Positions 746-61,088 of a stretch of DNA of 64,000 bases are shown one piece after another. Source of the stretch: Candidatus Cloacimonadales bacterium (GTDB taxonomy: Bacteria; Cloacimonadota; Cloacimonadia; Cloacimonadales; JAFGVF01). The stretch lies in contig OY782499.1 in the NCBI GenBank assembly GCA_963677815.1, forward strand, positions 2,789,252 to 2,853,251, given 5' to 3'. The notes under the pieces are model-generated. The model did no database searches, had not been told where the DNA came from, and saw only the letters and a list, made by a program, of their open reading frames with translations. Each line of letters starts with the position of its first letter. The stretch's first letter is position 1. A program made the translations under genes and the position numbers.

Positions 746-867
746 TAGGGTAGTAGAATGAACAATAAAGATTATTTGAAGTATCAGAACTGAAAGGGAT
801 TTATACTTTCCCTGGTCTACTTGACTCGACCTTACTTTTCTTTTTCTCTTTTTTTAATGAAAAAGAT

Positions 868-896
868 GCGGATGTGGTCATCCGCTTTCCCAGTTA
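868..896 (+). repeat. hairpin module GCGGATG-tggt-CATCCGC followed by TTCCCAGTTA
   Basis: 7-bp perfect stem. The same module recurs at 53185-53213. Confidence 0.75.
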
Positions 897-898
897 TT

Positions 899-11889: not shown

Positions 11890-11926
11890 TCTAGCTCCTG
11901 ACCTTAGTTTTTTATCATTTTTTAGT

Positions 11927-13120: not shown

Positions 13121-13185
13121 TCATTACTCCACAAGTTTTCTTTTAAATAAAATCTGAGATATTGTCTGATATGTCAAATATAATT

Positions 13186-15039
13186 TCATCTTTTCTTCTT
13201 TCTCTTGTTTTTTCCTGGACCTACTGTATAATTCTTGGTATTCTTCTTACTATTTACTTGTTTATCATCATTATTTTTACTAGGATAAAATTCATCAAGA
13301 AGATTAAGCATTCCAAGTGATTTAAGAGCTTCTATGACGTATTTTTTGTTAGCAGGAATGAACCATTGCACAAGAGCTTTTTGCAAGCGAATATCCCTAC
13401 CCTTAGCCACCAAGATGCTTTTACCTGAATACAGGTCTTTTTCAGTATAGTACATAGCTGTACTTGGGGTCATTGGTGTTGGGTAAAATTCTTGCACTTG
13501 TTCCAGTCTTAAGTTATTCTTCTTTAAATAAAGGGCTAGTTTAACTGCGTCTTTAAGACTAGTTCCAGGATGTCCTACTATGATATAGGGGATGATTTGC
13601 TGTTTTTTATCAACCTGACTAGAATAATTTAAAAATTGCTTAGAAAATTCTTCATATAAGGAGATATCTGGTTTATTCATTAATTTTAAAACTCTAGCAA
13701 CAGTATGTTCAGGAGCTAATTTGAGATGTCCACCAATATATTTTTTAGTAATAGTTTTAATAAATCTTGGGGATTTAAGAGCCAGATCAAAACGGATACC
13801 AGAAGCTATGAAAAGATTTTTTACACCAGGAAGACTAGAAACTTTGTCTAGTAAGTTTATATATTCTTCATGATTATAATCAAAGTTATTGCATATTTCA
13901 GGATAAAGACAGGAAGACCTTTTACAAACTAGACCATCTTTTAATTTGCATGACATACCATACATATTAGCCGAAGGACCACCAACATCGGAGATAGTTC
14001 CATGAAAATAAGCTTTCTTGGTAAGTTCTTCAACTTCTCTAATTATAGAAAGTGGACTTCTCGAGGCTACTTTCTTCCCTTGATGATAACCAATAGCACA
14101 AAAATTACACCCTCCGCCACATCCTCTATGAGCAGTAATTGAATCTCTTATTTGCTCCCAAGCTTTAAGACTTTTGCCTTTATAAACAGGGTGAACATCT
14201 CTAACAAAAGGAAGGGAGTAAATTTCATCTAACTCTTGGCTAGTAGGGACTTCTGCTGGTAAATTATGCTTAATATATCTTGTATTATATTTTTGATAAA
14301 TGATAGAAGATGAATAATTATTCTGGAAAATCTGAGTTAGCTTTAAGAAAGTATTTTTATCAGAACAAAGTTCTGCATCTGGTAATAATTTGAATGGTGT
14401 TGAATTATCAATTTCAGCTACTGATATGAGGGTTCCTTTAATATTTTGCAAAGATTCAACAGGAAAACCAGCATTGAGTTTATCTGCGATTTCTTGGATT
14501 ATTTTCTCCCCCATGCCATAGACTAAGATATCAGCTTTAGAATCTATTAATATTGAATTCCTTACCTTATTACTCCAATAATCATAATGGGAAATCCTTC
14601 GCATAGAAGCTTCTATTCCCCCTATTATTATAGGTTTATCTTTGCTTACTTGTTTAATCAAATTGGTATATCTTATCAAAGCTCTATCTGGTCTAAGACC
14701 TATTTTACCATCAGGAGTGTAAGCATCTTCAGAACGAAGTTTCTTCTGAGCAGTATAATGATTAACCATAGAATCCATATTACCTGCACTTATACCCCAC
14801 ATAAGCCGAGGTTGTCCTAAGGATTGAATATCATCTAATGAGTCTATATTAGGTTGAGCTATTATGCCGACTTTATAACCTCTAGCTTCTAGACTTCTAG
14901 CAATCACAGACGCAGCGAAACTGGGATGGTCAATATAAGCATCACCAGATACTATGATTATATCTAACTGCTCCCACCCCCTCGCCTGCATATCCTTGCG
15001 AGATATTGGTAAAAAGTCTATTTTTTCACTTGCTTTCAT
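13186..15039 (-). CDS. ygiQ: YgiQ-family radical SAM protein (UPF0313)
   Basis: YgiQ-type N-terminus (IIIVSGDAYIDHPSFAASVIARSLEARGYKVGII), Cys cluster RGCGGGCNFCAIGYHQG, K-rich tail. Confidence 0.85.
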   Translation of the reverse strand: MKASEKIDFLPISRKDMQARGWEQLDIIIVSGDAYIDHPSFAASVIARSLEARGYKVGIIAQPNIDSLDDIQSLGQPRLMWGISAGNMDSMVNHYTAQKKLRSEDAYTPDGKIGLRPDRALIRYTNLIKQVSKDKPIIIGGIEASMRRISHYDYWSNKVRNSILIDSKADILVYGMGEKIIQEIADKLNAGFPVESLQNIKGTLISVAEIDNSTPFKLLPDAELCSDKNTFLKLTQIFQNNYSSSIIYQKYNTRYIKHNLPAEVPTSQELDEIYSLPFVRDVHPVYKGKSLKAWEQIRDSITAHRGCGGGCNFCAIGYHQGKKVASRSPLSIIREVEELTKKAYFHGTISDVGGPSANMYGMSCKLKDGLVCKRSSCLYPEICNNFDYNHEEYINLLDKVSSLPGVKNLFIASGIRFDLALKSPRFIKTITKKYIGGHLKLAPEHTVARVLKLMNKPDISLYEEFSKQFLNYSSQVDKKQQIIPYIIVGHPGTSLKDAVKLALYLKKNNLRLEQVQEFYPTPMTPSTAMYYTEKDLYSGKSILVAKGRDIRLQKALVQWFIPANKKYVIEALKSLGMLNLLDEFYPSKNNDDKQVNSKKNTKNYTVGPGKNKRKKKR

Positions 15040-16993: not shown

Positions 16994-17286
16994 GAGTATT
17001 AACCCCTTTCAGCTCCTTGGAGCGCCTGAGAGGGGTGGTCGAGTAGACCGGGGAGAGTATTTTAACACTAAGTTCGGGCAGGATGCCCGAGTTCCCAGTT
17101 AGAGGGTATTTTAACACCTAGTTCGGGCAGGATGCCCAAGTTCCCAGTTAGAGGGGTATTTTAACACCTAGTTCGGGCAGGATGCCCGAGTTCCCAGTTA
17201 GAGGGGTATTTTAACACCTAGTTCGGGCAGGATGCCCGAGTTCCCAGTTAGAGGGGTGGTCGAGTAGTAGACCGGGGAAAGTATTT
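16994..17286. repeat. composite array: reverse-complement 63-bp module + 4 x 50-bp units (hairpin CGGGCA-gga-TGCCCG + TTCCCAGTTA) + reverse-complement module core
   Basis: TTCGGGCAG starts at 17073, 17122, 17172 and 17222. The flanks GAGGGGTGGTCGAGTAGACCGGGGAGAGTA are the reverse complement of the 899-1115 unit core. Confidence 0.95.
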
Positions 17287-20400: not shown

Positions 20401-21583
20401 AATCATCATTATAAGCTTTCATTATTTCTTTAACAAAGAGATTAGTAATTATAGTTGATTGACCTGATGGAGTGGTATCTGCAACTAATAAAGTTCTAGT
20501 GTAATAAGTTGTATCAGGTATAGTTGTTGCTTTTTCATATTTCAAAGTTTTAGTAACTATAGTTGAAAGGTCAATTAAATCATCAATTGAAATTCTTCCT
20601 AAGAAGATATCCTCTAAATCATCATTACCTTCTAACAAGCCATACCAGTGGTCTCCACCAGCACTATAAGAAGAAATAGTGTAAACAGGAATTGAGAAAG
20701 AGCCTGAGCCATCACCAATAAAAGTAACATAAGCAGGAGGATTTTCCCAGTTATCATAAGCATCTTGAATGTATGCTTTAATACTTGAAGTTGAAGTACC
20801 AGTCTGAGTTGTATTAGCAGTATAGACTGTCCAACCTTGTTCTTTTCTCCAATTGAAAAGATTACTTGCAATTGGATTACCTTCTAAAGCTGAAGGATAA
20901 ATATACAGAATAGTAGGGTTTTGGTAATCATCTCTAGTTGTAGGAGCTTGGTAATTTAATAATGTTGACGCGAAGAAATTTTCAAAACTAGCATCAGGTT
21001 TGATAAAAGACCTAGTAATTTCATTTACAGATGGGAGATTATCAAAGGTAATTTCAATTTCTGCTTTCTTAATAATTTCTAATGTATTTTTTGCATCATT
21101 ATACCTGAAGGGGTGGATGATAAAAGATACTAATCTCTTATTTCTTAAGATAGCAGGTTCCCCGATTTGTGCTATTGATGTGGGATAAAATACATCTTTT
21201 GTATATACTTGTTGGTTAAAAGTATAAATTTCTTGTTCATTCTCTCTAAAAGGTTTGATATTGATATTATCAATGATTTCAGAGTCAATAACTCTGATGT
21301 TTAATGATGGATTCCCAGTGTTAGGAATTTCGATAGTTGATGAGTAAAATGGTAGTTCAGGAGATCCAACATCTACTGTTAGGCTTAGTGATTGTGTACT
21401 TACATAGTCGTAAGAAGCAGCACCAATCATTTCTTGTTTGATTTCAAAATCTGGATTTTTGAAAATAATGTTCAAATTTGAGCGACTTTCATTTTCCAAT
21501 TGAAATTGGCCATAAGCTAAGATTGGTGTTAGCAGTATGAACAATCCGAATACTACACAAAAAAAGTTTTTTTTCTGAGTCAT
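17411..21583 (-). CDS. peptidase C25 (gingipain-family) multidomain secreted protease with T9SS-type C-terminal sorting domain
   Basis: Signal peptide and a C25-like core (...AYVTFIGDGS..., ...VILTCSTGTF... candidate catalytic Cys). Then long Ig-like/cadherin-like regions (VNDRPS) and a C-terminal NPFNPSTTINFSL...VSSGVYFYRM...KKAIMMK sorting-domain pattern. Confidence 0.8.
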   Translation of the reverse strand: MTQKKNFFCVVFGLFILLTPILAYGQFQLENESRSNLNIIFKNPDFEIKQEMIGAASYDYVSTQSLSLTVDVGSPELPFYSSTIEIPNTGNPSLNIRVIDSEIIDNINIKPFRENEQEIYTFNQQVYTKDVFYPTSIAQIGEPAILRNKRLVSFIIHPFRYNDAKNTLEIIKKAEIEITFDNLPSVNEITRSFIKPDASFENFFASTLLNYQAPTTRDDYQNPTILYIYPSALEGNPIASNLFNWRKEQGWTVYTANTTQTGTSTSSIKAYIQDAYDNWENPPAYVTFIGDGSGSFSIPVYTISSYSAGGDHWYGLLEGNDDLEDIFLGRISIDDLIDLSTIVTKTLKYEKATTIPDTTYYTRTLLVADTTPSGQSTIITNLFVKEIMKAYNDDYTFIQHFGDSPSPSSVSSGMNAGVGFWNYRGWIGMDGWGTSQAASLNNVNKLTVCVILTCSTGTFYSGESVTEAVVRSGSASSPTGGVCSIGLATSGTHTTFNNNLNGGIMGYLFQEDGWTMGAANNRGKFHLWEAYGVSKPERVNFFSTICNLIGDSALRVYKEQPKYFDTEYIQDIALGTDQYKVKTTEDGFPLTNVWATINIGEDYYTGYTNSLGEIFFDIPTDASGQGTLTVTKEGYQPQQYDLIFGLEAPVVNASSFTILENSTEVDYLLPGHDYNLTVEASNTGSADVTNISATISAISNGIVISNATADFGTILQGGNAENATHFEFSVPNMASENDIEFRIIFSNATYSWERKIALPIHSPLIQVVDYELVNTDFGPGETSVINLEVFNYGNGSLELANAMLTTTDNRLTINSDEVLLGALASGGTGSAGFNITASEDLLPGDLVPMILEISDGGFETAAYFSLQIGTASVTDPLGPDAYGYYIFDSDDTEYDECPEYDWIELDPGQGGVGTLISLPDNGDNQEQVEVVDLPFTFRFYDVDYDQISICSNGWIAMGETEQATFRNWRLPGPLGASPMIAPFWDDLITGSYGEVFVAHDPAEHYFVVTWNDWRNHYSSSYEETFQVILYDPEYYGSSTGDAPIKIQYKVINNVDSAGGNSHGEYATVGIEDHTGTVGLEYTYNNQYPQAAKVLENEMALFITTKIGQLPPFVTNQPNDITFEEDHSDASIDLYNIFKDPNNDILEFSFSDSENLSFEVNDEGYLVVTPADNWHGTESVTIYAEDGVTEMVVSVSFLVAVTPVNDRPSLQAKFPETTNFQSTNNFVSFGVDILDVDSELSYEWKIDNEVIEGEVSDSLDFTFDSVGEYQVKCYASDVDFTVIATWNVTVPVSNDVQVVAVNELGQNTPNPFNPSTTINFSLKQNSDVSIVVYNVKGQKVKTLVSDNYKQGNHTIVWNGMDDNNRPVSSGVYFYRMVSNEFQATKKAIMMK

Positions 21584-21750: not shown

Positions 21751-21808
21751 CTTGATTGTTACTCTCTCGATTATTCATTGGATTTTTATAGAGTGAGTAA
21801 CAATCAAG
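21751..21808. repeat. long-stem hairpin H, copy 2 (perfect 14-bp arms CTTGATTGTTACTC / GAGTAACAATCAAG, 30-nt spacer)
   Basis: The right arm contains the stop codon (21804-21806) of the M14 carboxypeptidase gene. It lies 170-220 bp upstream of the C25 gene ATG. Confidence 0.85.
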
Positions 21809-22841
21809 GGTTTATGATTCTCAATAGATTAGTCAGAGCACTTCTATGCTTTTTGATAATAGTAAATAAATCATTATTTTTGGGCATAAAGAGAGGAATT
21901 CCATTTGGAGTAATACCCGAAACTTCTATAGTAAAAGCATATGTTCCATAAGTTTTATAAAAATAATCTCTGGCGTAACCATATTTACTTGTTTCTCCTG
22001 TATGTACATGATAATGTCCATCTTTATAGAAACATGGTAGATTCATAGCAAGGCTATCTGCAATACTTTTCATATGATTCCACTCTTGACTTCTCTCCAG
22101 TCCCCAATGATAAGGAAAGAAAATCATCTCTGGATAAGTACCATTTGCAGAGGAGTGATAAAAGAAAGCATAATCAAAATCCATCTTGTCCCCTAACTTT
22201 ATAACTGCTTGAATTTCTGCTTCTGAGCTTGCTCTATTCCCTTTATAATATGGGCATTCAGGGTCATTTAAATCAGCAATATCCCAATTACTCGGGTAAT
22301 TTTTATTTAGATCTACCCCGTCAACTTTCAAGTCAAACACCCCATTAAGATTAGAATCAGTATTATTCTTTCTTTTTAGTGGATATTGTCCAGAATTAAC
22401 AATCTTGTAAGCTTCTGGATTTACCGTTGGAATGATTACAAAATAATAGTTTTTTATTAAGTCTTCTAAATCATTATTTCCCACTAGATCAGCTATTAAA
22501 CCTAGGGCTATCTCTACCCCAATTGGTTCTTCACCATGATGTTGTCCTATGATAAGCACTTTTGGCAAATCTCCAGGGAAATTATAATCCCAAAGTTTGA
22601 CCTTTTTACTCTTCACTTTCTGTGATTTATGGATATGAAAAGCATAGATGGGTAGCTTGTCATTACTTGACTGACCAATTATCTCAATATCTGAAACAAG
22701 TCTATTTTGCTGATGATATGTTAACAAAGTATCACCCAAATTTTCCCAGTTATGATAAGCAGTATCCAAAGGATATTGATTTACTGCTTCAAGCATTAAA
22801 TAAGTTATTAAGATTGTAAGCAGAGCGTAAAATCTCTTCAT
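21804..22841 (-). CDS. M14-family zinc carboxypeptidase
   Basis: Signal peptide and Zn-binding motif IIGQHHGEEPIG (HxxE); 345 aa. Confidence 0.75.
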   Translation of the reverse strand: MKRFYALLTILITYLMLEAVNQYPLDTAYHNWENLGDTLLTYHQQNRLVSDIEIIGQSSNDKLPIYAFHIHKSQKVKSKKVKLWDYNFPGDLPKVLIIGQHHGEEPIGVEIALGLIADLVGNNDLEDLIKNYYFVIIPTVNPEAYKIVNSGQYPLKRKNNTDSNLNGVFDLKVDGVDLNKNYPSNWDIADLNDPECPYYKGNRASSEAEIQAVIKLGDKMDFDYAFFYHSSANGTYPEMIFFPYHWGLERSQEWNHMKSIADSLAMNLPCFYKDGHYHVHTGETSKYGYARDYFYKTYGTYAFTIEVSGITPNGIPLFMPKNNDLFTIIKKHRSALTNLLRIINP

Positions 22842-25500: not shown

Positions 25501-25780
25501 AATCCTGGAAGGATGCAGATATAATAGGCAGGGTTCGAAGACCCTGTACAAGGAGTCTCCCAAAAACCTAAGCCCCGGAGGGGCGATAATACCTCTTACT
25601 GATTATGTAAATAAGGGTTAAGCTCTCTTTTTATCATGTTTTTTTATGAATAATAAGTACTATAAAAATAAATCTGGAAAAATGAATATTGTCGCCCCTC
25701 CAGGGCTTTACTTGATTTTTTGAATTAATTAATACAGGGTCTTCGAACCCTGCCTATTATATCTGCATCTCTCCGAGATT
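25501..25780. repeat. 280-bp quasi-palindrome (37-nt perfect arms 25512-25548 / 25733-25769, extended imperfectly; inner arm pair 25571-25590 / 25688-25707)
   Basis: GATGCAGATATAATAGGCAGGGTTCGAAGACCCTGTA and its exact reverse complement. Each arm contains its own mini-hairpin CAGGGT-tcgaag-ACCCTG. Confidence 0.9.
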
Positions 25781-28291: not shown

Positions 28292-28317
28292 TAGGTCTCC
28301 TAACATCCCAGATAAAA

Positions 28318-28348
28318 AGACCTTCTCAAAAGAGAAGGTCTTTTATTT
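28318..28348 (+). terminator. intrinsic terminator downstream of feoB
   Basis: AGACCTTCTC-aaaa-GAGAAGGTCT followed by TTTTATTT. Confidence 0.85.
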
Positions 28349-28569: not shown

Positions 28570-28604
28570 AAAAAGACCTTCTCAAAAGAGAAGGTCTTTT
28601 ATTT
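28570..28604 (-). terminator. second identical copy of the same hairpin; serves as terminator for era (minus strand) and could also act on the plus strand
   Basis: 39-nt perfect direct repeat of 28310-28348 at 28566-28604. An A5 run precedes it and a T-run follows, so it is bidirectional. Confidence 0.75.
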
Positions 28605-43344: not shown

Positions 43345-43369
43345 GACCTTCTTTGAATTTTTAAACTTT

Positions 43370-43629
43370 TTAACCTAAATGGTATAGTAGTGCTTTAGTA
43401 ATCCCCTTCTTTGAGGGGGATACAGGGGGTGATTCCATAAAGACCTATAAAATCCCCTTCTTTGAGGGGGATATAGGGGGTGATTCCATAAAGACGTATA
43501 AAATCCCCTTCTTTGAGGGGGATACAGGGGGTGATTCCATAAAGACCTATAATATCCCCTTCTTTGAGGGGGATTTTGCATAAGAATATAGTGCTATTCT
43601 CAAAGCTCTACTGCATTATTGGGGTCAAT
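43370..43629 (+). mobile_element. TIR element copy D with its central 51-bp module tandemly amplified (about 3.5 copies)
   Basis: Left end is TTAACCTAAATGGTATAGTAGTGCTTTAGTAAT; right end is ...CTCAAAGCTCTACTGCATTATTGGGGTCAA. AATCCCC unit starts at 43400, 43451, 43502 and 43553 (period 51). Confidence 0.8.
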
Positions 43630-43727: not shown

Positions 43728-43925
43728 GGACTGGAAATTATGGACTGGCGGCATCTTGCCACCAGACTAAACAGGCCTACCGAGCCTGTTGTGGATGCAA
43801 GATGCATCCACTCCATACTTCCATACTAACCCTGCTTGCTAAAAATCTACAAAGATGTCGCTTTCTACCAAGATGTCACTCCTAGCAGAGCTTTAACTGG
43901 CAAAACAAGCATCCCTGCTTGCAAA
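43728..43925. repeat. cluster of hairpin modules (CTGGCGGC-atctt-GCCACCAG; ACAGGC-ctaccga-GCCTGT; GTGGATGC-aagat-GCATCCAC + TCCATAC; CAAGCA-tccc-TGCTTG)
   Basis: Stems read directly. The same flanking words (TATGGACTG..., ...CCACTCCATAC) recur at 55627-55821. Confidence 0.8.
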
Positions 43926-46913: not shown

Positions 46914-47190
46914 TTAGCAAAATCCCCTTTCAGCTCTATAACTGGGAACGCGGGCATCCCTGCCCGCACAGGCAGTTCAACTGACTGTATATCTTCAAAA
47001 TCCCCTTCACAAGGGATTTAACAGCTAACTGGGAAAACGGGCATCTTGCCCGTACTGGGAACGCTCTAAATGACACCTGCGTAACCGCGGGCTGGAATCC
47101 CGCGTTCCCAGTTAGATTAATCCCCTTTCAGCAGCACCCCATCTTTGAGGGGGACACAACAGGGGGTGATTCCATAAACTACGCATATAA
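46914..47190. repeat. mosaic of repeat modules forming the left flank of the accessory segment
   Basis: AATCCCCTTTCAGC; TAACTGGGAA-hairpins GCGGGCA-tccc-TGCCCGC and ACGGGC-atctt-GCCCGT. A 66-nt module (47063-47130) is the inverted copy of 52724-52789. A partial TIR-element core lies at 47128-47190. Confidence 0.85.
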
Positions 47191-47208: not shown

Positions 47209-49647
47209 TTAATTTTGATCCAGAAACTTCTTTCTTTCAATATATCCTTGACGTCTATAATTTATGATATCTTTAACAAATGCAAGGACCTGCTTATTGC
47301 ATTTTCTTAAAACTACTAGATCCTCTGGATCAAACCTTAATGAGAAGATAGCACTTTCTGCATCATACATGAAAATTGATGAATCTCTTTTTGTTAGATA
47401 ATGGATTGGATTCTTTTCAGCAAGTTGTTTCCATTCCTTCTCAGTCCATTCTTTAAAATTTGAATTACTTTCATCAGTTAAATCCTTAGCATTTATTGAA
47501 GAATTATAGAATGTCTTAAAGCTAGCAACAATGTTAGTAATATGTGTTTCATTATGTAATTGATTATCATAAACTAGAGCTAGGATAGTAGGTATTTTAT
47601 ATAGTTTTGTCATTGAAGTTTTTTCTACTTCGCTTAGAAAAGATGCTATTTTAGATTTTTTGATAATCTTAAATGTAGCATTTTCTGGGTACAATGATAT
47701 AAGAAAATCTAACCATGAACCGAACGTTTTTAGATAAATCCTGCCTGGTAGGTCAGATGCTGCATTAAATTCACTTAAAGAATATTTATCATCTAAGTTA
47801 TCTTTAATATCAAGATAATTTTCAATAAGTCTTTGTTTAAGAGGTAATTTTTTATTTCTTAGAACTTCAAAAAGGTGGATAAGTTTAAGCTCAATATCTA
47901 GAATACAGGAAACTGGAAGTTGTTCTCTAGTTTGCTCCCAGGACAAACTAGTTTTCTTTTTGATATCTCTGGGGGTAAGACCTGCTAAATAAGATAATTT
48001 AAAATGACTATTCTTATAATTGCCTACAAAATCTAAAATAATTAGTTTATCTTTGTTATTACTAGTTCTTAAACCTCTACCTAACTGTTGAATAAAAATG
48101 GTAAAAGATTCTGTGGGTCGTAAAAACATAACAGTATCAATATGAGGTATATCAACACCTTCATTAAATATATCTACTACACATAAAACTGATATTTTAC
48201 CTTGAGAAAAGTCTTCAATAATGTTCGTACGCGAGTTTATTCCTGAATGAAGAGCAACTGCGTTAATATTGTTTTTTTGGAACTGATTTGCAGTATAGTC
48301 AGCATGTTTAACAGAGCAACAGAAAGCAAGAGTGCTTTTCCTAGCCTTCTCACGATAATTTTTTATTATATTATTTGCTCTTTGGTCAACCATATAGACG
48401 TTTTCTAATTCATTGATATCATATCGACCAGATCGCCAAGGTATTTTTTCATAATCAATATCATCATAGATACCATAATATGTAAAGGGTACAAGCCAGC
48501 CATTATTAATAGCTGTTTTGAAATTACATTGAAAGGCTATGTTATAATCACAATATTGATAAATATCTTTGTTGTCAAGTCTGTTTGGAGTTGCTGTTAG
48601 ACCTAATAAGAATTTAGGAGTGAAATAGTCTAAAAAAGAAAGATAGCTATTAGCAGCAGAATGATGAAATTCATCAACGATAATATAATCGAAATAATCA
48701 GATGAAAAATAATCATCATTAAGATATATGTTTTTACCGATAGTAGAAATTGAGGCAAATATTATATCTTTATCAGTTTCTTTTATATCAGCATTAAAGT
48801 CTCCAAAACTAGCTTTTGTCCTGATTTTTTTAAAGGTTTCTTTAGCTTGAATTAATATTTCTTGTCTGTGGGCAACAAACAGTACTCGTTTAAATTTTTT
48901 TGAATCAAAGGCTGAGAGGAAAGTTTTGCCAAGTCCAGTAGCCATAACTATAAGTGCTTTATTGAAACCTTCTTTCCTTGTTCTTTCTAATTCATAAAGA
49001 GCAGGAATTTGGCATTTGATTGGTTTGTATTTTGAACTAGTAAGTGGTTGGGGATTTGGATTACTGTCATCAGTTTCAGGTTTAAAATAATGTGAAGGAT
49101 CAAAATCCGGTTTAAAATGTTCAGATGTTATAGGTTTGTATTCCATAAAATATTTTTGAAGCCATTCATCACTGGGATTAAAACTATAATTTTCTACTAT
49201 ATCATCATACTGACTTAGAAATTCTTTTATTGCATTTTTTTCATCGAAAAGTATATTCCATTCTAGGCCAGTTGTAAGAGCTATTTGAGAAATATTTGAA
49301 GATCCAATAACCATCTCTTCACTATCTTCCATGAACTTAAAATAATATCCTTTTATGTGGAATGAAGTTTTAAACTTATTATGATCAAAGATAGAAAGAG
49401 AAAAATTGTCATTATTTAGTGATTTAAGCTTATAAAGAGCTACAGGCTCTGTAACATTAAGATAAGTGCTTGTTAGAATGCTTACTTTAGCATTATTAGT
49501 CAAAGCACGCTTGAGATAACTAAATAATAAGTCAACTCCTGAGCTTTTAATAAAGGAAACACAGAAAATGATTTCTTTTGCAGATGCTAGCTTATCTTCA
49601 AGAATATCTTTAAGTGAGGATTGCTTGGAATTGGTGATAGCTTTCAT
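47209..49647 (-). CDS. PLD-like (HKD) nuclease domain + SF2 (ResIII/DEAD-like) helicase + C-terminal DUF3427-like extension
   Basis: N-terminus has FHIKGYYF...VIGSSNIS (HKD-like). Helicase motifs are I MATGLGKT, II IVDEFHH, III GLTATP and VI QQLGRGLR. A roughly 230-aa C-terminal region follows, in the position DUF3427 occupies in this architecture as I recall it. Confidence 0.8.
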   Translation of the reverse strand: MKAITNSKQSSLKDILEDKLASAKEIIFCVSFIKSSGVDLLFSYLKRALTNNAKVSILTSTYLNVTEPVALYKLKSLNNDNFSLSIFDHNKFKTSFHIKGYYFKFMEDSEEMVIGSSNISQIALTTGLEWNILFDEKNAIKEFLSQYDDIVENYSFNPSDEWLQKYFMEYKPITSEHFKPDFDPSHYFKPETDDSNPNPQPLTSSKYKPIKCQIPALYELERTRKEGFNKALIVMATGLGKTFLSAFDSKKFKRVLFVAHRQEILIQAKETFKKIRTKASFGDFNADIKETDKDIIFASISTIGKNIYLNDDYFSSDYFDYIIVDEFHHSAANSYLSFLDYFTPKFLLGLTATPNRLDNKDIYQYCDYNIAFQCNFKTAINNGWLVPFTYYGIYDDIDYEKIPWRSGRYDINELENVYMVDQRANNIIKNYREKARKSTLAFCCSVKHADYTANQFQKNNINAVALHSGINSRTNIIEDFSQGKISVLCVVDIFNEGVDIPHIDTVMFLRPTESFTIFIQQLGRGLRTSNNKDKLIILDFVGNYKNSHFKLSYLAGLTPRDIKKKTSLSWEQTREQLPVSCILDIELKLIHLFEVLRNKKLPLKQRLIENYLDIKDNLDDKYSLSEFNAASDLPGRIYLKTFGSWLDFLISLYPENATFKIIKKSKIASFLSEVEKTSMTKLYKIPTILALVYDNQLHNETHITNIVASFKTFYNSSINAKDLTDESNSNFKEWTEKEWKQLAEKNPIHYLTKRDSSIFMYDAESAIFSLRFDPEDLVVLRKCNKQVLAFVKDIINYRRQGYIERKKFLDQN

Positions 49648-49648
49648 A

Positions 49649-50221
49649 TTATTTATTTAAAAGAACATTTAACCATTTTTCAGTCTCTCTACCAGGCCTT
49701 TTGTCTTGTGAAATAGTGTATTCAACTAAAGAAAAACCTATCTGCTGATAGTTGAGAGATTCGAACTTTTCCTGAGTATAATCACAAAAAAAACGTCCGT
49801 GACGAAATTCTTCTTTTTTGCCATACTTCAATGATAAAAAAAGATAACCACCATTCTTGAGAGATTGATAGATATTTTTCAGAGCATTAGGCATTTGACT
49901 TGATGGAATATGTAAAAGTGAAGCACAAGCCCAAGCTCCAATAAATCTATCTTGGTATTTAATATCAGCAATTTTTTCATTAGAGATTTTAAGCCCCAAA
50001 TAATTCTCAGCTAACTTAGCTAGTTCTTCAGCTGGTTCTAGTGGTAAGACTTTATATCCATGAGACATAAACACTTTAGAGTCTCTACCTGAACCACAGC
50101 CAATATCCAAAATTTCACCTTGAGAAGGTAAATAAGACATAAAGTAGTTTTGTAGTTTGCTCATATCGACGTTTAAAGTGGATTCAAAATATTCTTGTGC
50201 ATTTTTATTATAATAATTCAT
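49649..50221 (-). CDS. class I SAM-dependent methyltransferase (small-molecule/RNA-type, 190 aa)
   Basis: Motif I ILDIGCGSGRDS and a post-I acidic residue (LPLE). No DPPY/NPPY or PCQ DNA-MTase motifs seen. Its stop is 1 nt from the downstream helicase ATG. Confidence 0.8.
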   Translation of the reverse strand: MNYYNKNAQEYFESTLNVDMSKLQNYFMSYLPSQGEILDIGCGSGRDSKVFMSHGYKVLPLEPAEELAKLAENYLGLKISNEKIADIKYQDRFIGAWACASLLHIPSSQMPNALKNIYQSLKNGGYLFLSLKYGKKEEFRHGRFFCDYTQEKFESLNYQQIGFSLVEYTISQDKRPGRETEKWLNVLLNK

Positions 50222-50518
50222 ATTTTACTCCATAAGCTATTATAGTCTTATAATAATTTTGGATTCAGGTGTCAATGATTATTTCTTCTGAAAAGAATAA
50301 ATATTTTGAAGACTATTCAACCATCAAGCTACCTTCCCCAGCAGCATATTCTTTAAGAAGTCTATAATGTTGCCCATCATTTGTTATTTTTACTTTGTTA
50401 AATAAGTTTAGCTAATAGCATTTACTCTAGGTTAGGATTGCTGAAAAACAAATCTTCTTTCAAGATGTAGTTAAACTTTTCTTAAAATCCCTGAGGATTT
50501 AAGAGGCTTATTCCATTT

Positions 50519-50613
50519 GAGCTGAAAGGGGATTAATACTCTCCCCGGTCTAATCGATCACCCCTCTCAAGCGCCCCAAGGAGCTGAAAGGGGATTAATA
50601 CTCTCTCCCGTCT
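50519..50613 (+). repeat. about 1.5 copies of the 63-bp module (variant GGGGATTAATACTCTCCCCGGTCTAATCGATCACCCCTCTCAAGCGCCCCAAG)
   Basis: GAGCTGAAAGG occurs at 50519 and 50581. Confidence 0.85.
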
Positions 50614-50698
50614 TTAAGAGTGTTGGAAGTCGCTACTGCATGCATGAGAATGGTAAAGTTCATTGATTACCTACTATATCCGAATAGTTATTCCTTTC

Positions 50699-50756
50699 CT
50701 TGATTGTTACTCTCTCAATAAAAATTCCATGATTAAATGAGTAAGTAACAATCAAG
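50699..50756. repeat. long-stem hairpin H, copy 3
   Basis: CTTGATTGTTACTC...GAGTAA(gtaa)CAATCAAG, 120 bp upstream of the 50876 ORF. Confidence 0.8.
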
Positions 50757-50875
50757 AAATTTACTAAAATAAAAATATTTTTTTTTCTAGAAGTGCACCA
50801 ATTTCAGGAAAATGGACCCTATAGTATTGTGTAAGGCTTGCAAGCAAAACAAAAAAATTAAAAAGAGGTAAAAAA

Positions 50876-51340
50876 ATGAAAGTAAAATTTAAGTATGGAA
50901 TCAAGAGTTATTCAGGCACATTAGATGATATGGTATTTGCAAATTTTGAAGACAGAAATGTTGTGATTGGAAGAATGTTACCGGCAGATAGAGAAGCTAC
51001 TCCGCAGAATGAGATAATTGCTAGTAATTCTAGAATCATTAGTACATTTTATAAATCTTTGTCAGCAGCATACAAACAAGATTTAACAGAATACGCTAAG
51101 AAGATGTTTAATTTGAAAGCCTATTCCAATCGCGTGGCTGGTTCTGGTTATTCAGTATTCAATAAGATAATTTGGGCAGCTAATGATGATACAGGAAATC
51201 CATTAGATATATCATCTCTTTCAGCTGACGATATTGTTGCTGGCACTTATCCTCAGATTGATACAATCAAGGCTGCAGTAGAAAATGGATATATACCTAT
51301 GGTAGGAGGTTATGAAGAATTTAATAATCCTCTAGTATAA
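50876..51340 (+). CDS. hypothetical protein (154 aa)
   Basis: ATG preceded by AAGAGG; followed by a hairpin and T-tract terminator. No recognisable motif. Confidence 0.5.
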   Translation: MKVKFKYGIKSYSGTLDDMVFANFEDRNVVIGRMLPADREATPQNEIIASNSRIISTFYKSLSAAYKQDLTEYAKKMFNLKAYSNRVAGSGYSVFNKIIWAANDDTGNPLDISSLSADDIVAGTYPQIDTIKAAVENGYIPMVGGYEEFNNPLV

Positions 51341-51355
51341 ACTAGAAAAGATTTC

Positions 51356-51392
51356 TCTTCCAGGAGTTGAAAAGACTTCTGGAAGATTTTTA
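51356..51392 (+). terminator. intrinsic terminator downstream of ORF 50876-51340
   Basis: TCTTCCAG-15 nt-CTGGAAGA followed by TTTTTA. Confidence 0.6.
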
Positions 51393-51516
51393 TTACAATA
51401 CAATCTGTTATTAGCTGTATGAATGATAAATTATTGATTTATAATAATATAAATATTAGTCATCTTTAGAGAGTCTCAAAAAAACTATTATTTTTTCTCT
51501 TTAAGTAATTTTTTTA

Positions 51517-51545
51517 TTGACAAAATAACTGTATTTATTTATTAT
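51517..51545 (+). promoter_or_regulatory. near-consensus sigma-70-type promoter with no ORF downstream for about 550 bp
   Basis: TTGACA (51517-51522), a 17-nt spacer, then TATTAT (51540-51545). Confidence 0.35.
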
Positions 51546-51857
51546 GTTTTCATTATTAATTAACTAGATGGAGGCGTTTGGAATTTAATAAGAGTAAATA
51601 ATCAAAGATGAGTGGTTTCTACAAGGAGTTAATGGGTATTTTGGGATAATAGGTATGATTTATAAATATGTAAACACAATTTCGTATTCAGTCAGGTTAA
51701 ATTAACTATCATTCAATATTAAATAATTTCAATATTATTATTATTATATTTGATAAAGCTTAAGCGTTTTATTCTATTATAATATGTGATTATACTTCCC
51801 AAAGTATTTAAAAATAAATATACGATATTTCATCAGGGATTGGGGAGTAGAAAATAT

Positions 51858-52081
51858 TTAACCCAGATAGTGAAGAAGAACTTTATTAATACTTGGCTAA
51901 AGCTACGTATCACAGGTGAAGAATGCAGATTATTCTAGCAAAATCCCCTTCTTTGTGGGGGATACAGGGGGTGACTCCATCAACTACGCATATAATATAT
52001 ATATTCGGAGAAATTATGGAAGTTACTTTTGCAGAATAATATAGTGCTATTCACAAAGGTCTTGTGCATTATTTGGTTTAA
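51858..52081 (+). mobile_element. TIR element (MITE-like) copy B
   Basis: TTAA-CCCAGATAGTGAAGAAGAACTTTATTAATAC...core AATCCCCTTCTTTGTGGGGGATACAGGGGGTGACTCC...CACAAAGGTCTTGTGCATTATTTGG-T-TTAA. Confidence 0.75.
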
Positions 52082-52103
52082 GCATAGTTTTACAGGAGTA
52101 TAT

Positions 52104-52718
52104 ATGCAAATAGAAATGCAATACAATCATAAACAAGATTCTCTCATTATTAAATCAGCAGGTCTCAAGGATGTAGTTTTGAAGTCAAGTGTAGGGGCAA
52201 AATCATTATATCATTTAATTAATAATCCAAACAGATCATTTTCTCCGATATTATTAAGGAATATTACTAAAGAAGAGGTTAACTTATCAAATATGATTAA
52301 AGAAAAATTTGAGATTACAAGTAGAGAAGATCAATTATTATATCAATCAATACATCAGTATATACCTGCATCAGATATGAAGACTATAATAGAATGTAGA
52401 AAAAGGTTAAAGGTTATTTTAGAAGAATTGAGGGAAGCAGACTTCAATAACGATATTGGCAGAAGCGAAACACTTGTTGAAGAGAAAGAATTTATTGAAA
52501 AATATATTCATGATTCTGTTAGTGCTAATGGCTCTTTTAGAAACCTAAATAATTCTAAGAGAAATGCAACCAAAGCTCTTCAAAGAAATATTAGAAATGT
52601 TTTGAATGAAATAGATGAACAATCTCCAGAAATATATAAGTTTATTACAAAAAGATTGATAGTATCAACAAATCAGATAAAATATTACCCTGATAATGAT
52701 TATACTAGTGTAGATTAA
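52104..52718 (+). CDS. hypothetical protein (204 aa), possibly regulatory
   Basis: ATG at 52104 is preceded by AGGAG (52094-52098). The ORF-track start at 52029 is a TTG inside repeat element B. Helical, K/E/N-rich. Confidence 0.5.
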   Translation: MQIEMQYNHKQDSLIIKSAGLKDVVLKSSVGAKSLYHLINNPNRSFSPILLRNITKEEVNLSNMIKEKFEITSREDQLLYQSIHQYIPASDMKTIIECRKRLKVILEELREADFNNDIGRSETLVEEKEFIEKYIHDSVSANGSFRNLNNSKRNATKALQRNIRNVLNEIDEQSPEIYKFITKRLIVSTNQIKYYPDNDYTSVD

Positions 52719-52723
52719 ACCAT

Positions 52724-53213
52724 GAAAGGGGATTAATCTAACTGGGAATGCGGGATTCTAGCCCGCGGTTACGCAGGTGTCATTTAGATGGCGGAGAAAA
52801 TCTCCACCGTCCGACAAATACTCTCCCCGGTCTACACGACCACCCCTCTCAGGCGCTCTAGCGAGCTGAAAGGGGATTGTTTACTCTCCCCGGTCTTATC
52901 GACCACCCCTCTCAGGCGCTCCAAGGAGCTGAAAGGGGATTAATCTAACTGGGAATGCGGGATTCTAGCCCGCGGTTACGCAGGTGTCATTTAGATGGCG
53001 GAGAAAATCTCCACCGTCCGACAAATACTCTTGTCCCCGGTCTACACGACCACCCCTCTCAAACGCTCCAAGGAGCTGAAAGGGGATTGTTTACTCTCCC
53101 CGGTCTACACGACCACCCCTCTCAGCCGCTCCAAGGAGCTGAAAGGGGATTAATACAGGGATGCCCGTGTTCCCAGTTATATATGCGGATGTGGTCATCC
53201 GCCTTCCCAGTTA
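52724..53213 (+). repeat. higher-order repeat: about 208-bp unit x2, followed by two TTCCCAGTTA hairpins. Each unit = 66-nt module + GGCGGAGA-aaa-TCTCCACC hairpin + two 63-bp modules.
   Basis: GAAAGGGGATTAAT occurs at 52724, 52931 and 53141. Confidence 0.9.
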
Positions 53214-53340
53214 TAAAGCTGGAAGGGGATTTTAATCCGAGAGAATCCCCATCTCCCTTCGCTAATACATTCTACATAGCTTTAGCCTAGTAGAAAGCTT
53301 CGGAAGAAAAACCGTCGATTAGAGAGCTTTTTCCTAATAT

Positions 53341-54145: not shown

Positions 54146-55501
54146 TTATTCTAAAATTAACCAATCCTGGTCTATCACATTAAATGATTTAATATAATTA
54201 TCCTTGAGTGATTGGTAATTTTCTACTGTTTGAACTTTATTGATTACAGTTTTTATTTCGTTTAAAGATTTGATTCTGCTATCAAGTTTTGCTTTAGCAG
54301 CAAGTAATTTTTCCCAGTTATTAACTTTTTCAGAAATTTCATCTTTAGCCTTTTGACTAGGATTTTTCATTTTGTCATGATTTTCAACAGCATTATCTAA
54401 TGAATTTTTGTTATTTGAAATTGCAGAAGCAATAATAGAATTAAAGTTTTGATAAAATTCAAGGTAAATAGAGATATCTTGATGTCTAAAATTATCTTTG
54501 ATATAAGTTTCAAACGAGATAAATAATTCACGGTCAGATTCTGTGATCAAACTAACATTCAAATCAAAGTCCTCTGGATTAATAGTAGATTTAAAACTAT
54601 TAATAGCTGTGTCTCTTTCTTGAGTAAGAGCAGGAAGCATTTCAATGTTTTCTTGTAAAAAGTTAGGTCCTAGTTTCATGTATTCAGATCTTGGTCCAAC
54701 TTCATAGATTTCATCTTGGATATTATAAATAACTTGAGCACCTTGACTACCAAATTCTTCAGTGGTCTCAGCAACAATAGTAGAATCTGCTGTTAAAGTG
54801 TATGAGAAGTATTTAGCTTGAACTTTATTAAGGTCAACTAAGTTGATATTGCTAAAATTTCTTATTTGATTGTAAGATAAATCATACTGACCATCAACAG
54901 GTTTAAGCCCTTTAACAAAGGTAATAACTTGGATAATTTCGTTATTAAATTGTTCTTCTAAACCAGGAGTAACAAAATCAGCAAATCTTCTTTCAGCTAA
55001 ATCATAAAATTCAAAGAATTTATTGTCTTCTAAGAAAGTTCCTAAATTAGGAAGAACATCATAATCAAAGTTTAATTTAACAAGACTTACATCGTTGACA
55101 TATTTATCAAATTTTGATAAGTAGGCAACTTTTACAAGAGGTCTAACCTCTGTTTGTAAGAAAGTAATATAGTCTTTTTTCTTGGTAAAAGAAAGATATT
55201 TTTTAGCAAAATCTTTTTCGAAATTAACATATTTTAAGAAGTCGTTAACCCCAATATAATATTTAAGTTCTTCACTGTTTAAGCTTTTGATTTCACTTAG
55301 TTTTAGATCCTCAAGTTGACCAGTTTGGTCGTAAGCCTTCAAGATACTATTAACGTTATTCTTCATTTCTCTAATTTTTGGTTGTGCTTGATTAGCCTGA
55401 GTAAATGGCACAATAAATACAATTAAAATACCAACGATCATTACAATCATTAAGTATTCTACTAAAGAAAATGTATGGTCCTTGGTTCCTTTAGCCATCA
55501 T
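54146..55501 (-). CDS. large protein with type IV pilin-like N-terminal methylation/TM segment (451 aa)
   Basis: N-terminus is MMAKGTKDHT-FSLVEYLMIVMIVGILIVFIV (F-S-L-V-E with Glu at +5, then a hydrophobic helix). The residue at -1 is Thr rather than the usual Gly. Confidence 0.55.
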   Translation of the reverse strand: MMAKGTKDHTFSLVEYLMIVMIVGILIVFIVPFTQANQAQPKIREMKNNVNSILKAYDQTGQLEDLKLSEIKSLNSEELKYYIGVNDFLKYVNFEKDFAKKYLSFTKKKDYITFLQTEVRPLVKVAYLSKFDKYVNDVSLVKLNFDYDVLPNLGTFLEDNKFFEFYDLAERRFADFVTPGLEEQFNNEIIQVITFVKGLKPVDGQYDLSYNQIRNFSNINLVDLNKVQAKYFSYTLTADSTIVAETTEEFGSQGAQVIYNIQDEIYEVGPRSEYMKLGPNFLQENIEMLPALTQERDTAINSFKSTINPEDFDLNVSLITESDRELFISFETYIKDNFRHQDISIYLEFYQNFNSIIASAISNNKNSLDNAVENHDKMKNPSQKAKDEISEKVNNWEKLLAAKAKLDSRIKSLNEIKTVINKVQTVENYQSLKDNYIKSFNVIDQDWLILE

Positions 55502-55626
55502 TCCTCCATCTAGAATTTCAATTTAAGCAATTTCACTATCACACTTCATTTTGTCAAAGTATTTTTTTTCTTTTTAGCTAGAATGAGCTTTTTTTGGGAA
55601 AATAGGAGGTGTTACAATAAACTACA

Positions 55627-55821
55627 CTATGGACTGAGACCATCTTGGTCTCAGGTGGAAGTAAGGATACTTCCACTCCATACTCCAAAAATGTGACAGC
55701 TGCATAACCACGGGCTGGAATCCCACGACCCTATGGACTGAGACCATCTTGGTCTCAGGTGGAAGCAAGGATGCTTCCACTCCATATACTTCTGCGTAAC
55801 CACTGGCTAGAATCCACGACC
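55627..55821 (+). repeat. 104-bp unit x2 containing two hairpins each (CTGAGACC-atctt-GGTCTCAG; GTGGAAGY-aaggat-RCTTCCAC)
   Basis: CTATGGACTG occurs at 55627 and 55731. Confidence 0.9.
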
Positions 55822-55831
55822 TCAGGTTAAA

Positions 55832-57238
55832 CTAAGTTAAAGAGTTACTTTTCCATATTACAAACAAATAAATTCCAACTAGAAAAGAAAATCCAGCAAG
55901 ATTAAGAAAAATATTAAAAGAAGGTGTGATATAATAGATTATAATTAAAATTACGCTAGGTAAACTGTAAGCAAATAATTTCATAATGGTTTTTGTGATA
56001 TGACCATTAAGTAGTTTATAAACTAAGCCAATAAATATAAGATGCATAAGAATACTTGCTATGACATAGTAGAGTAAAGCAGTTTGAAAGCCTGAAAAGT
56101 GGCCTAGATAGATAGCAAGAGATTTAACAATTAAACTAATAATCTTATAAATCATTTCAGTATGGGGTAGTTCTAAGACATAAGGAATACTAGATATGGG
56201 GTTCATTAGCATAGTTGTGGCTAATGAAAAAGCAAGAATTTTAACTATTGGAAGTGCTTCATTCCATTTATCACCAAAGATTATTGGAACAAAATTCAGA
56301 ATATAAATTACGAAAAGGAAAAAGAGAGGAAAAGCATAGATAGTAGTAATTTTCAAGAACTTATCAATCTTGAATTTAATATCTTGCTTGCTCATAAAAG
56401 TAAAAGTTGGAAATAAAACCTGTCTAAGAGAGTTACAGGCTAATACAACTGCTTGTCCAATTAGCTGATTTGCTAGATAATAAACTCCTATCAGGATTGG
56501 ATCAAAAAGTATTCCTAGGATTATGACAGGCAAATCATTAATTAACATAGATACAATATTATTTAAGCTAGCAGTCAGGAGAAATCTTCTATTATCCTTA
56601 TAGGAAGTTAGGAAACTTGTAAAAGTCTTGTAAGAGAATAAATTACTAAGAGTCTCTTTGGACAGTTTATAATCCATTATTAGCAGGAGAATAAGCTCTA
56701 CTAAATTACCAAAATAGAATATTATTACCAAAGAATAGATATCAAGCTTATAGAATAAAAAGATAAGAATTAATCCTGAATAAACTATAACATTAATAGT
56801 TTCGATAATTGATAAACTCTTGAACCTTAAACTCTTTTGATAATAAGCCCTTAGAGATGTTCTTAAGATTTCTAAAACTAATAAAGGACTTAGCTTTAAT
56901 AATAAATCTGTTAAGACAGGGCTATTATAGTAACTACCAATATAAGGAGCTAAAAGATATAAGAGAACAGAACTGATAAGTGATATAAAGAAAGAAAACT
57001 GAAAAAGTTCATGAAATATCTTTTTTGTCCTTTCTTTTTTTACTATTAGAAGATCTTGAAAACCTAAAAAAGAAATAGAGGTAAAAATTGCTAAGACAAG
57101 TGAGAACTCTCGAAAAATACCTAAATCTTCCTTGGTAAGTTCTTTAGCTACAAGAAGAAAAACGCCAAATAGAATAGCCTTTCGGAAGATAGCAGTAAAA
57201 AAAGACCACTGGAAAGATTTTAAAGTATTCCTTTGCAT
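55832..57238 (-). CDS. polysaccharide/oligosaccharide flippase (Wzx/MOP-family-like)
   Basis: 468 aa, about 12-14 TM helices, with an N-terminal pattern typical of Wzx-like proteins. Confidence 0.7.
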   Translation of the reverse strand: MQRNTLKSFQWSFFTAIFRKAILFGVFLLVAKELTKEDLGIFREFSLVLAIFTSISFLGFQDLLIVKKERTKKIFHELFQFSFFISLISSVLLYLLAPYIGSYYNSPVLTDLLLKLSPLLVLEILRTSLRAYYQKSLRFKSLSIIETINVIVYSGLILIFLFYKLDIYSLVIIFYFGNLVELILLLIMDYKLSKETLSNLFSYKTFTSFLTSYKDNRRFLLTASLNNIVSMLINDLPVIILGILFDPILIGVYYLANQLIGQAVVLACNSLRQVLFPTFTFMSKQDIKFKIDKFLKITTIYAFPLFFLFVIYILNFVPIIFGDKWNEALPIVKILAFSLATTMLMNPISSIPYVLELPHTEMIYKIISLIVKSLAIYLGHFSGFQTALLYYVIASILMHLIFIGLVYKLLNGHITKTIMKLFAYSLPSVILIIIYYITPSFNIFLNLAGFSFLVGIYLFVIWKSNSLT

Positions 57239-57620: not shown

Positions 57621-57795
57621 TAAATCCCCCTTGGTGAGGGGGAAAACAGGGTGTGTTCCTTTATAATCCCCCTTAGTGAGGGGGAAAACAGGGGGTGTTC
57701 CTTTATAATCCCCCTTAGTGAGGGGGAAAACAGGGGGTGTTCCCTTATAATCCCCCTTAGTGAGGGGGAAAACAGGGGGTGTTCCTTTATAATCC
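57621..57795. repeat. tandem array of a 42-bp hairpin unit, 4 copies + partial (AATCCCCCTTAGTGAGGGGGAAAACAGGGGGTGTTCCTTTAT)
   Basis: AATCCCCC occurs at 57623, 57665, 57707, 57749 and (partial) 57791. Each unit contains CCCCC-ttagtga-GGGGG. Confidence 0.95.
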
Positions 57796-60823: not shown

Positions 60824-60836
60824 AAGACCTCAATTG

Positions 60837-61088
60837 TTAATCCCTAATTGAGCAGTAGAGCTTTAGTAATACTTCGCTAAAGCTACGTATCACAGGTGAA
60901 GAGTTCAGATTCTTTTTGCAAAATCCCCTTCTTTGATGGGGACACAGGGGGTGATTCCATAAATTCCGCATAATATATATTCTGAAGAATTATGTAAGTT
61001 ACTTTTGCAATGAGTCTTCGCTAAAGCTACGCTCTCACAAGAATAATATAGTGTTATTCTCAAAGAACTACTGCATTATTTGGGTTAA
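60837..61088 (+). mobile_element. TIR element (MITE-like) copy C, about 250 bp, occupying the whole trmB / HD-gene intergenic region
   Basis: TTAA-TCCCTAATTGAGCAGTAGAGCTTTAGTAATAC...core...CTCAAAGAACTACTGCATTATTTGGG-TTAA. Contains an internal duplication of CTTCGCTAAAGCTACG. Confidence 0.8.

Follow-up and report, generated by a model that had tools for sequence, protein, structure and literature searches.

The window, by which we mean the whole 64,000-nucleotide stretch of DNA that was analysed, is a 32% GC chromosome segment carrying housekeeping genes and T9SS-type secreted proteases; no tRNA or tmRNA genes were found in it. At 55621-55821, two diverged repeat units (104-bp units; unit 1, 55621-55724; unit 2, 55725-55821) sit between two minus-strand genes, a polysaccharide-biosynthesis gene (55832-57238) and a pilin-like gene (54146-55501). 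They lie 11 nt downstream of the stop codon of the former and upstream of the conserved promoter region of the latter. Each unit consists, in order, of TATGGA, hairpin A, hairpin B, TCCATA, and a third hairpin of type D. In both units, hairpin A is CTGAGACCA-TCT-TGGTCTCAG and hairpin B is GTGGAAG[T/C]A-AGGA-T[A/G]CTTCCAC. The features of the site are as follows.

55628-55682, plus strand: dimer 1, with tag TATGGA (55628-33), hairpin A (55634-54), hairpin B GTGGAAGTA-AGGA-TACTTCCAC (55655-76), and inverted tag TCCATA (55677-82).
55732-55786, plus strand: dimer 2, with the architecture of dimer 1; hairpin B is the C-G allele GTGGAAGCA-AGGA-TGCTTCCAC (55759-80).
55694-55727, minus strand: D-type unit 1, CGTGGG-ATTCCAG-CCCGTG plus GTTATGCAGCTGTCA; homolog of 47071-47104.
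55786-55819, minus strand: D-type unit 2, decayed, with a 1-nt deletion in the stem.

The initial annotation had described the 104-bp units and a compensatory change in the second hairpin, T55662>C55766 matched by A55669>G55773. These coordinates and bases are correct, and the two paired positions are the sole differences between the 49-nt A-B cores of units 1 and 2. The proposed AAGGAT loop had to be redrawn, since the stems extend through the A-T closing pair and leave loops of TCT and AGGA. The substitution was also not an event that occurred in situ between adjacent copies. Outside the core, the two units are separated by a 12-nt indel and about nine substitutions, several of them unpaired, and are therefore diverged family members rather than a fresh duplication. 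Both hairpin B variants (T-A and C-G) were found again in other genomes (T-A also in L007, L008, and L014), indicating that the adjacent copies carry two old, widespread alleles. In D-type unit 1, both stem changes relative to 47071-47104 are G·T wobbles on the minus strand.

The region of the two units is predicted to fold strongly on either strand (fold z of -6.1 on the plus strand and -5.8 on the minus strand). The consensus promoter/terminator scan of 55400-55950 called no promoter or terminator-like site, and no U-tract follows A or B, so that the GC-rich hairpin plus U-tract of an intrinsic terminator is absent from this interval. By eye, TGTTACAAT at 55611-55619, which precedes dimer 1 by 9 nt on the plus strand, looks like an extended -10 element, which the consensus promoter scan did not call. 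The Rfam 15 covariance models gave nothing at gathering thresholds in the window and chance-level matches only (E >= 0.7) in 55500-55900. The 210-bp region of the two units had no match in GenBank phages or PLSDB plasmids.

Read on the strand that carries the pyrimidine loop, the basic unit is a 5' tag followed by a 7-9 bp GC-rich stem ending in CA, a 3-4 nt loop TCY(Y), and then TG. Types A and B carry TATGGA as their tag, types C and D (TA)ACTGGGA(A/G)N. Type C comprises nCGGGCA-TCC-TGCCCGn and others, and type D is a variant with the loop ATTCYAG. TATGGA stands 5' of A, and 5' of B on the reverse strand of B; the A-B pair is thus two tagged units placed tail to tail, with outward-facing, complementary tags. 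Neither this dimer architecture nor the flanking tags TATGGA/TCCATA and TAACTGGGAA had been recognised in the initial annotation. A tag was found before every apex hairpin read in this direction. The conserved loop reported earlier stands as an apex that, together with one tag, is common to at least 16 different, unrelated stems and is constant across species, phages, and base compositions. The loop itself, however, varies (TCT, TCC, TCCT, TCCC, CCCT, TCTC, and TCAT); the invariant part is the CA...TG closure formed by the last stem pairs, C-G and A-T. Likewise, stems said to differ entirely do so between types, whereas within one type the outer stems are fixed (CTG..CAG and GTGGA..TCCAC) and the inner 3-5 bp are variable. 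Units were found singly, as tail-to-tail dimers, in direct tandem arrays, as inverted pairs, and in mosaics with other modules.

The apex CA-Y3-4-TG was present in 34 of 63 perfect GC-rich hairpins, on at least 10 different stems, in 204 kb. Perfect GC-rich hairpins with a stem of 7 bp or more number 20 in the window, compared with 1.1 in shuffles; nine of the 20 have the apex, compared with none. The window has 15 copies of TAACTGGGAA, with 0.27 expected, and 12 of them are in intergenic arrays. Three exact copies lie in coding sequence without a hairpin (20744-20753, 22743-22752, and 54311-54320; 0.27 expected window-wide) and may be remnants or in-frame relics. The nearby pilin and TfoX genes had prompted a reading of TAACTGGGAA as a DNA-uptake sequence, which was rejected because its copies are clustered in few arrays. 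Tags always hold GGA or GGGA and loops are TCC, TCT, TCCT, or TCCC, making tag and loop complementary (e.g., 55628-55654, 46939-46967, and L039 355-428). The tail ATCTT found 3' of C-type hairpins repeats the apex motif. Two further structures were discarded. A three-way-junction RNA with P1 formed by TATGGA/TCCATA shows no covariation in P1, where pairing is an automatic consequence of inverted tags, so that the outer "helix" needs no separate explanation; kissing between the A and B loops amounts to pyrimidine versus purine loops, likewise without covariation.

Further copies of the family in the window are listed below.

43739-43817, plus strand: split A-B dimer, with TATGGA, A CTGGCGGCA-TCT-TGCCACCAG (one C·A), an inserted hairpin AACAGGC-CTACCGA-GCCTGTT, B GTGGATGCA-AGA-TGCATCCAC, and TCCATA.
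17066-17252, minus strand: four tandem 50-bp C-type units, CTAACTGGGAAC plus T(C/T)GGGCA-TCC-TGCCCGA.
46937-47061, plus strand: two C-type units, GCGGGCA-TCCC-TGCCCGC and ACGGGCA-TCT-TGCCCGT.
47079-47116, minus strand: inverted C2/D-type unit, CTAACTGGGAA plus CGCGGG-ATTCCAG-CCCGCG.
52737-52981, plus strand: two C2/D-type units inside a 207/210-bp tandem array.
53170-53215, minus strand: two tagged units facing those at 52737-52981, downstream of ndk; one is GGCGGATG-ACCA-CATCCGC.
861-898, minus strand: tagged unit, TAACTGGGAA plus AGCGGATG-ACCA-CATCCGC, with a T-rich tail.

T-rich tails are confined to the GCGGATG-ACCA subtype. The inverted unit at 47079-47116 and 47024 bound a 91-bp composite (47025-47115) with 11-bp inverted tags. 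Several other repeats share the window. A CCCCC/GGGGG hairpin module forms tandem arrays at 57623-57795 and 43400-43574 (42 bp x4 and 51 bp x3.4). A 63-bp tandem repeat family (TACTCTCCCCGGTCTACACGACCACCCCTCTCAGGC...GAGCTGAAAGGGGATT) occupies 899-1115, 50519-50613, and 52819-53154 and creates the spurious ORFs 821-1135 and 52955-53290. A 57-nt AT-rich inverted-repeat family (1210-1266, 21751-21807, and 50699-50755; CTTGATTGTTACTCTCTC…GAGTAAsTAACAATCAA) keeps its stem constant and varies in its loop of about 20 nt. At 28315-28344 and 28571-28600 there are two identical 30-nt terminator-like hairpins, 256 bp from each other, and a mirrored CAGGGT/ACCCTG hairpin pair is located upstream of feoB (25529-25546 and 25735-25752).

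Dimers were collected from other genomes with a pattern that left the inner stems and loops of A and B free. The scan of GTDB genomes found the repeats in the Candidatus Cloacimonadales MAGs OY829950.1, OY782831.1, and JAEKNW01; the strict dimer pattern gave none in viral contigs and three real copies in metagenome contigs, the other two of the five matches there being chance. The resulting alignment comprised 18 dimers from about five Cloacimonadales genomes plus metagenomes. In this alignment, 98.6% of the cells were paired and 6 of the 24 pairs showed changes on both sides (27 cells), a level reached by 0 of 500 shuffles and not approached by any slid register. The inner stems were AGACC, AGGGC, ACAGC, GCAGC, GCAAC, and GCGGC for hairpin A and AAGC, AAGT, and ATGC for hairpin B. 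G·T intermediates between alleles were also seen, namely a B of L015 with T·G, which stands between C-G and T-A, and an A of L008 with G·T. Among 33 non-identical C-type units, both-side changes affected six of seven pairs (38 cells, with 16 different 5' arms), again exceeding all 500 shuffles; since these units had been selected for pairing, only their pair-type diversity counts as evidence. Judged against shuffles, covariation across genomes is therefore positive in both alignments, and the central suggestion of the initial annotation, that constraint acts on pairing rather than on stem sequence, is borne out.

The remaining mismatches are strongly one-sided. Counted on the tag-bearing strand, with the dimer sense used for A-B, stem mismatches were about 14 G·T to 1 A·C, with few others; the ratio becomes about 11:3 if B is read on its own tag strand, because the two G·T cases of hairpin B lie on the dimer sense strand and off that tag strand. 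Such an excess of G·T on one strand suggests that the units act as a single strand and not as a duplex site, and at either ratio a duplex-only role or pure templated correction is unlikely. The hairpin must form on a single strand, and its stems are free to change as long as pairing is kept.

The scan for C units identified two related IMG/VR viral contigs, L025 (IMGVR_UViG_3300001336_000216) and L026, with 12 and 15 units, whose head genes are Mu-type (portal, MuF, protease, TerL, major head, and tape measure). Phage units often begin where the upstream gene has its stop codon. Both contigs have units in the TerL-portal junction, which is empty in the next relative, L027. In L026 (IMGVR_UViG_3300042254_000260), an array runs in frame (…STGIADIPVGITGNTGFPAAITGNAGIPARTGS…) between the portal and MuF domains of a 954-aa ORF (11554-14418) that ends C-terminally in a PBECR2 nuclease domain. 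Over 72 nt, this portal-ORF array is 98.6% identical to window positions 46938-47009, showing recent exchange between phage and chromosome. A single DNA strand carries all 27 units of the two contigs, although local genes run antisense to about half of the clusters. The unit strand is the TerL strand and is C-rich (GC skew about -0.17) whatever the gene direction, the skew being negative even in a plus-strand gene block. The family extends further. One distant genome, with a marker protein of 45% identity, combines this tag and apex with the stem GTAGCCA/TGGCTAC, and its units follow a stop codon and precede a canonical terminator. In viral contigs of 61-68% GC, a less strict scan picked up ACTGGGAGC plus GCCGGCA-TCC-TGCCGGC and related units, including a TTCCAG loop variant; perfect pairing at the free positions rules out chance there.

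Copies are gained and lost at orthologous sites. In the sister genomes L016, L017, and L019, the gene order glyoxalase, polysaccharide synthase, pilin-like gene, and ndk is kept and the downstream promoter region is conserved, and the A-B-D array is absent from the same spacer. Compared with orthologs, the arrays at 57623-57795 and 60832-61088 are insertions into 13-35 bp spacers, the former in a spacer of about 35 bp inside a conserved operon. Downstream of ndk, the module set differs in every species compared. Some dimers are nevertheless retained at orthologous sites in two species (L001/L003 and L006/L009). Because units are absent in sister genomes and variable in number between close phages, no gene depends on them. 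Filled and empty sites, when compared, showed no duplication and no definable target-site signature. The roughly 6 kb at 47209-53340, between ndk and an M28 peptidase gene, is absent in L016 and L017 and has repeat arrays on both sides. Its products are a type IV restriction-like PLD-helicase (47209-49647), a methyltransferase, and two hypothetical proteins; the segment resembles a defence island that was inserted into a hotspot of repeats.

On chromosomes, units tend to follow transcription. About 13 C-type clusters are sense and 2 antisense to the gene whose 3' end precedes them; between convergent genes, the clusters face each other, and in L039 and L004 the units come after the stop codon and before a canonical intrinsic terminator. 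Of 12 loci with A-B dimers, 9 have them in sense orientation, or 7 of the 9 clear ones after orthologous loci are merged. At the present site, the D units are sense and the dimers are antisense to both flanking genes. The strandedness check suggested earlier thus gave a bias relative to transcription for C-type units, but no rule for replication, as a replication-strand rule based on GC skew was inconsistent between the window and the phages. No single rule covers both the chromosomal pattern, which goes with transcription, and the phage pattern, which goes with one DNA strand.

Selection on RNA could by itself give rise to the chromosomal pattern, and in 3' UTRs it has to be taken seriously, whether as a partner of the DNA-level reading or as its rival. 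As a rival, possible in our view but on the unlikely side, it would make the units mainly RNA elements, that is, sense stem-loops of 3' UTRs or intercistronic gaps that shield transcripts, end them, or mark where they are processed, with tag and apex perhaps read by an RNA-binding protein or RNase, and spread by duplication or recombination without a dedicated transposase. The co-orientation of about 13 of 15 C-type clusters with the preceding gene, the facing arrangement between convergent genes, and the position of units before terminators in L039 and L004 fit this account, as do the sense-strand excess of G·U-type over A·C mismatches, the dimers kept at orthologous sites in two species pairs, and the phage units placed directly after stop codons. 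It accounts poorly for dimers that are antisense to both flanking genes and for phage clusters that are about half antisense yet all on one DNA strand. Units missing at sister orthologous sites and varying in number between close phages also speak against it, as do the lack of a U-tract after A or B, the lack of an Rfam family match, and the one array that is translated in frame.

The units might instead be conventional MITEs, which derive by deletion from a DDE insertion sequence and use terminal inverted repeats (TIRs) to move as double-stranded DNA. A MITE-like element whose TIRs are about 27 bp long (TTAACCY..AAT..GCAGTAG..CTTT; 43364-43628, 51852-52081, and 60832-61088, with a remnant near 1120-1200) is indeed present in the window and is inserted relative to orthologs, the copy at 60832-61088 occupying a 13-bp spacer that is intact in three sister genomes; this element carries the hairpin module AATCCCCTTCTTTGAGGGGGAT plus ACAGGGGGTGATTCC. 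The 11-bp inverted tags of the composite at 47025-47115 could be taken the same way. A MITE, however, has TIRs of at least 10 bp and a target-site duplication, and the inverted tags of A-B are just 6 bp with no recognisable duplication. Single units and direct tandem arrays lack inverted ends, neither the window nor about 840 kb of related loci showed an insertion sequence, and the strand uniformity in phages and the G·T asymmetry would be unexpected under duplex transposition. We regard this origin as very improbable.

Palindromes are known substrates for templated mutation, so that intrastrand template switching (quasi-palindrome correction) or gene conversion could restore the arms and mimic compensation with no structural selection. 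Conversion could indeed account for the adjacent difference in hairpin B, both alleles of which pre-exist in the family. Neither process explains why tag and apex stay fixed amid at least 16 stems across phyla-level GC differences, or why mismatches are almost exclusively G·T on one strand, and this reading is still harder to credit. Scarcely credible, finally, is the idea that the arrays give RNAs which soak up a CsrA-like protein as sponges or decoys, through the purine-loop apex CA(A)GGAUG: the CsrA consensus (SELEX RUACARGGAUGU; CsrB repeat CAGGAUG) fits both hairpin B (GCA-AGGA-UGC) and C units read on the reverse strand (GGGCA-GGA-UGCCC), and tandem arrays look like multi-site sponges, but GGA is present in only about 18 of 34 apex loops (AGA, GAGA, ATGA, and AAGG are common), the CA/TG closure is more conserved than GGA, C units are gene-sense on the UCC strand, no promoter was predicted in 55400-55950, and no csrA was seen in about 840 kb of related loci.

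Among known systems, the closest likeness is to the REP/BIME elements of Enterobacteria and Pseudomonas, whose stem-loops have a terminal GTAG (or CGTC) tag and are mobilised by RAYT/TnpA_REP; their genomes encode a RAYT (Y1/HUH) gene, typically with repeats on its flanks, and their dimers are head-to-head, tail-to-tail, or head-to-tail. REPs are defined as stem-loops with a 6-9 bp stem and a 2-5 nt loop, occurring singly, as dimers, or clustered (PMC3733652); the 7-9 bp stems and 3-4 nt loops described here fit these limits. Degenerate GTAG tags such as GTGG have been reported, CTGG and ATGG not (PMC3733652). Both families combine a GC-rich stem-loop with a conserved single-stranded tag on one side, are extragenic and of high copy number, show compensatory stem variation, and differ in presence or absence between relatives. 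Two stem types in inverted orientation recall Y and Z, tandem amplification recalls BIME-2, and mosaics occur as in Escherichia coli. Unlike those elements, the present ones have (C/A)TGG-type tags, TATGGA and (TA)ACTGGGA(A/G), which are neither GTAG nor CGTC, and an apex CA-TCY(Y)-TG common to many unrelated stems. Their host is 32% GC, they are abundant and strand-uniform in phage genomes, and no RAYT was identified in the window and about 840 kb of related loci. The tag CTGGGAGC matches six of the eight positions of GTAGGAGC, the head of the Pseudomonas putida REP consensus.

REPINs, the REP doublets of Pseudomonas fluorescens, are similar in that the replicating unit consists of two inverted REP-like units and stem changes are paired in populations. 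In a REPIN, the inverted REPs are mutually complementary and form one long hairpin, whereas in A-B dimers the two stems differ (CTGAGACC versus GTGGAAGC), each folds on itself, and only the 6-nt tags are complementary. Rickettsia palindromic elements (RPEs) are likewise hairpin repeats of a low-GC genome and resemble the in-frame array of the phage portal-MuF ORF, but they are longer (about 100-150 bp) and have a different tag, and in-frame insertion is exceptional here; RPEs are CGTC-tagged and are not known to have a dedicated transposase. Pneumococcal BOX and other modular repeats share the modular mosaic, the variable number of tandem sub-units, and the stable fold when transcribed, but BOX modules lack a shared tag-plus-apex code and free-stem covariation of this kind. 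The ends of IS200/IS605 elements (the IS608 hairpins) are recognised as a folded single strand, as proposed for the present units, with an orientation tied to one DNA strand as in the phages here; the left and right hairpins of IS608, however, are direct and flank tnpA, whereas the present pairs are inverted and enclose no gene. The literature searched contained no description of these repeats and nothing relevant on repeats, RAYT, or CsrA in Cloacimonadota.

The initial annotation had also suggested a hairpin-recognising protein. That 16 or more unrelated stems, from different species, phages, and GC contents, have one apex in common does argue for a trans-acting hairpin reader. A candidate gene was not found in the regions covered: Pfam searches of nearly all ORFs of at least 90 aa in the window gave no HUH/Y1 transposase, other transposase, or CsrA-like gene, and tblastn searches of related loci totalling about 840 kb, which cover only part of any one genome, gave no Y1/HUH, DDE, or CsrA match (queries: YafM, IS608, IS200, a COG1943-like protein, and CsrA). 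Nor did Pfam, PHROGs, PADLOC, and NCBIfam reveal a hairpin nuclease among the hypothetical ORFs beside arrays or among phage ORFs.

On balance, we lean towards reading the locus as a local cluster of a lineage-wide REP/BIME-like family, made up of non-autonomous hairpin elements that are handled as folded single-stranded DNA by a trans-acting enzyme and whose survival is shaped by selection on RNA. We infer an enzyme that cuts and rejoins units; it would recognise folded single-stranded DNA through tag and apex and would most likely be a RAYT-like Y1/HUH transposase. Tandem amplification would afterwards build the arrays, and transcribed units would persist best in sense 3' UTRs, where an RNA hairpin may be harmless or useful.

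A more speculative proposal, which we think distinctly unlikely, is that the tag (GGA/GGGA) and the complementary apex loop (UCC, UCU, UCCU, or UCCC) are the halves of a recognition code for a hypothetical single-strand-specific enzyme, not a classical GTAG-RAYT, that moves units on one DNA strand. Such one-strand movement would account for the 27 one-strand units in two phage genomes. The proposal would also define a third tag class of REP-like elements, present in Cloacimonadota, their phages, and unrelated high-GC hosts, for which in-frame insertion is possible.

The upkeep and movement of REP-like repeats are still debated, and knowledge of them comes mostly from the GTAG elements of Proteobacteria. 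The family described here separates the variables, as tag and apex stay constant and stems vary freely, with covariation, in a low-GC uncultivated phylum, in its phages, and in high-GC contigs. Arrays of these units are hotspots of assembly and annotation error, as in the spurious ORFs noted above, and mark the insertion sites of islands. The contrast between strand-uniform phage copies and sense chromosomal copies sets DNA-level against RNA-level explanations within one system, and the recognition target, tag plus apex on a folded single strand, and its reader become directly testable questions.
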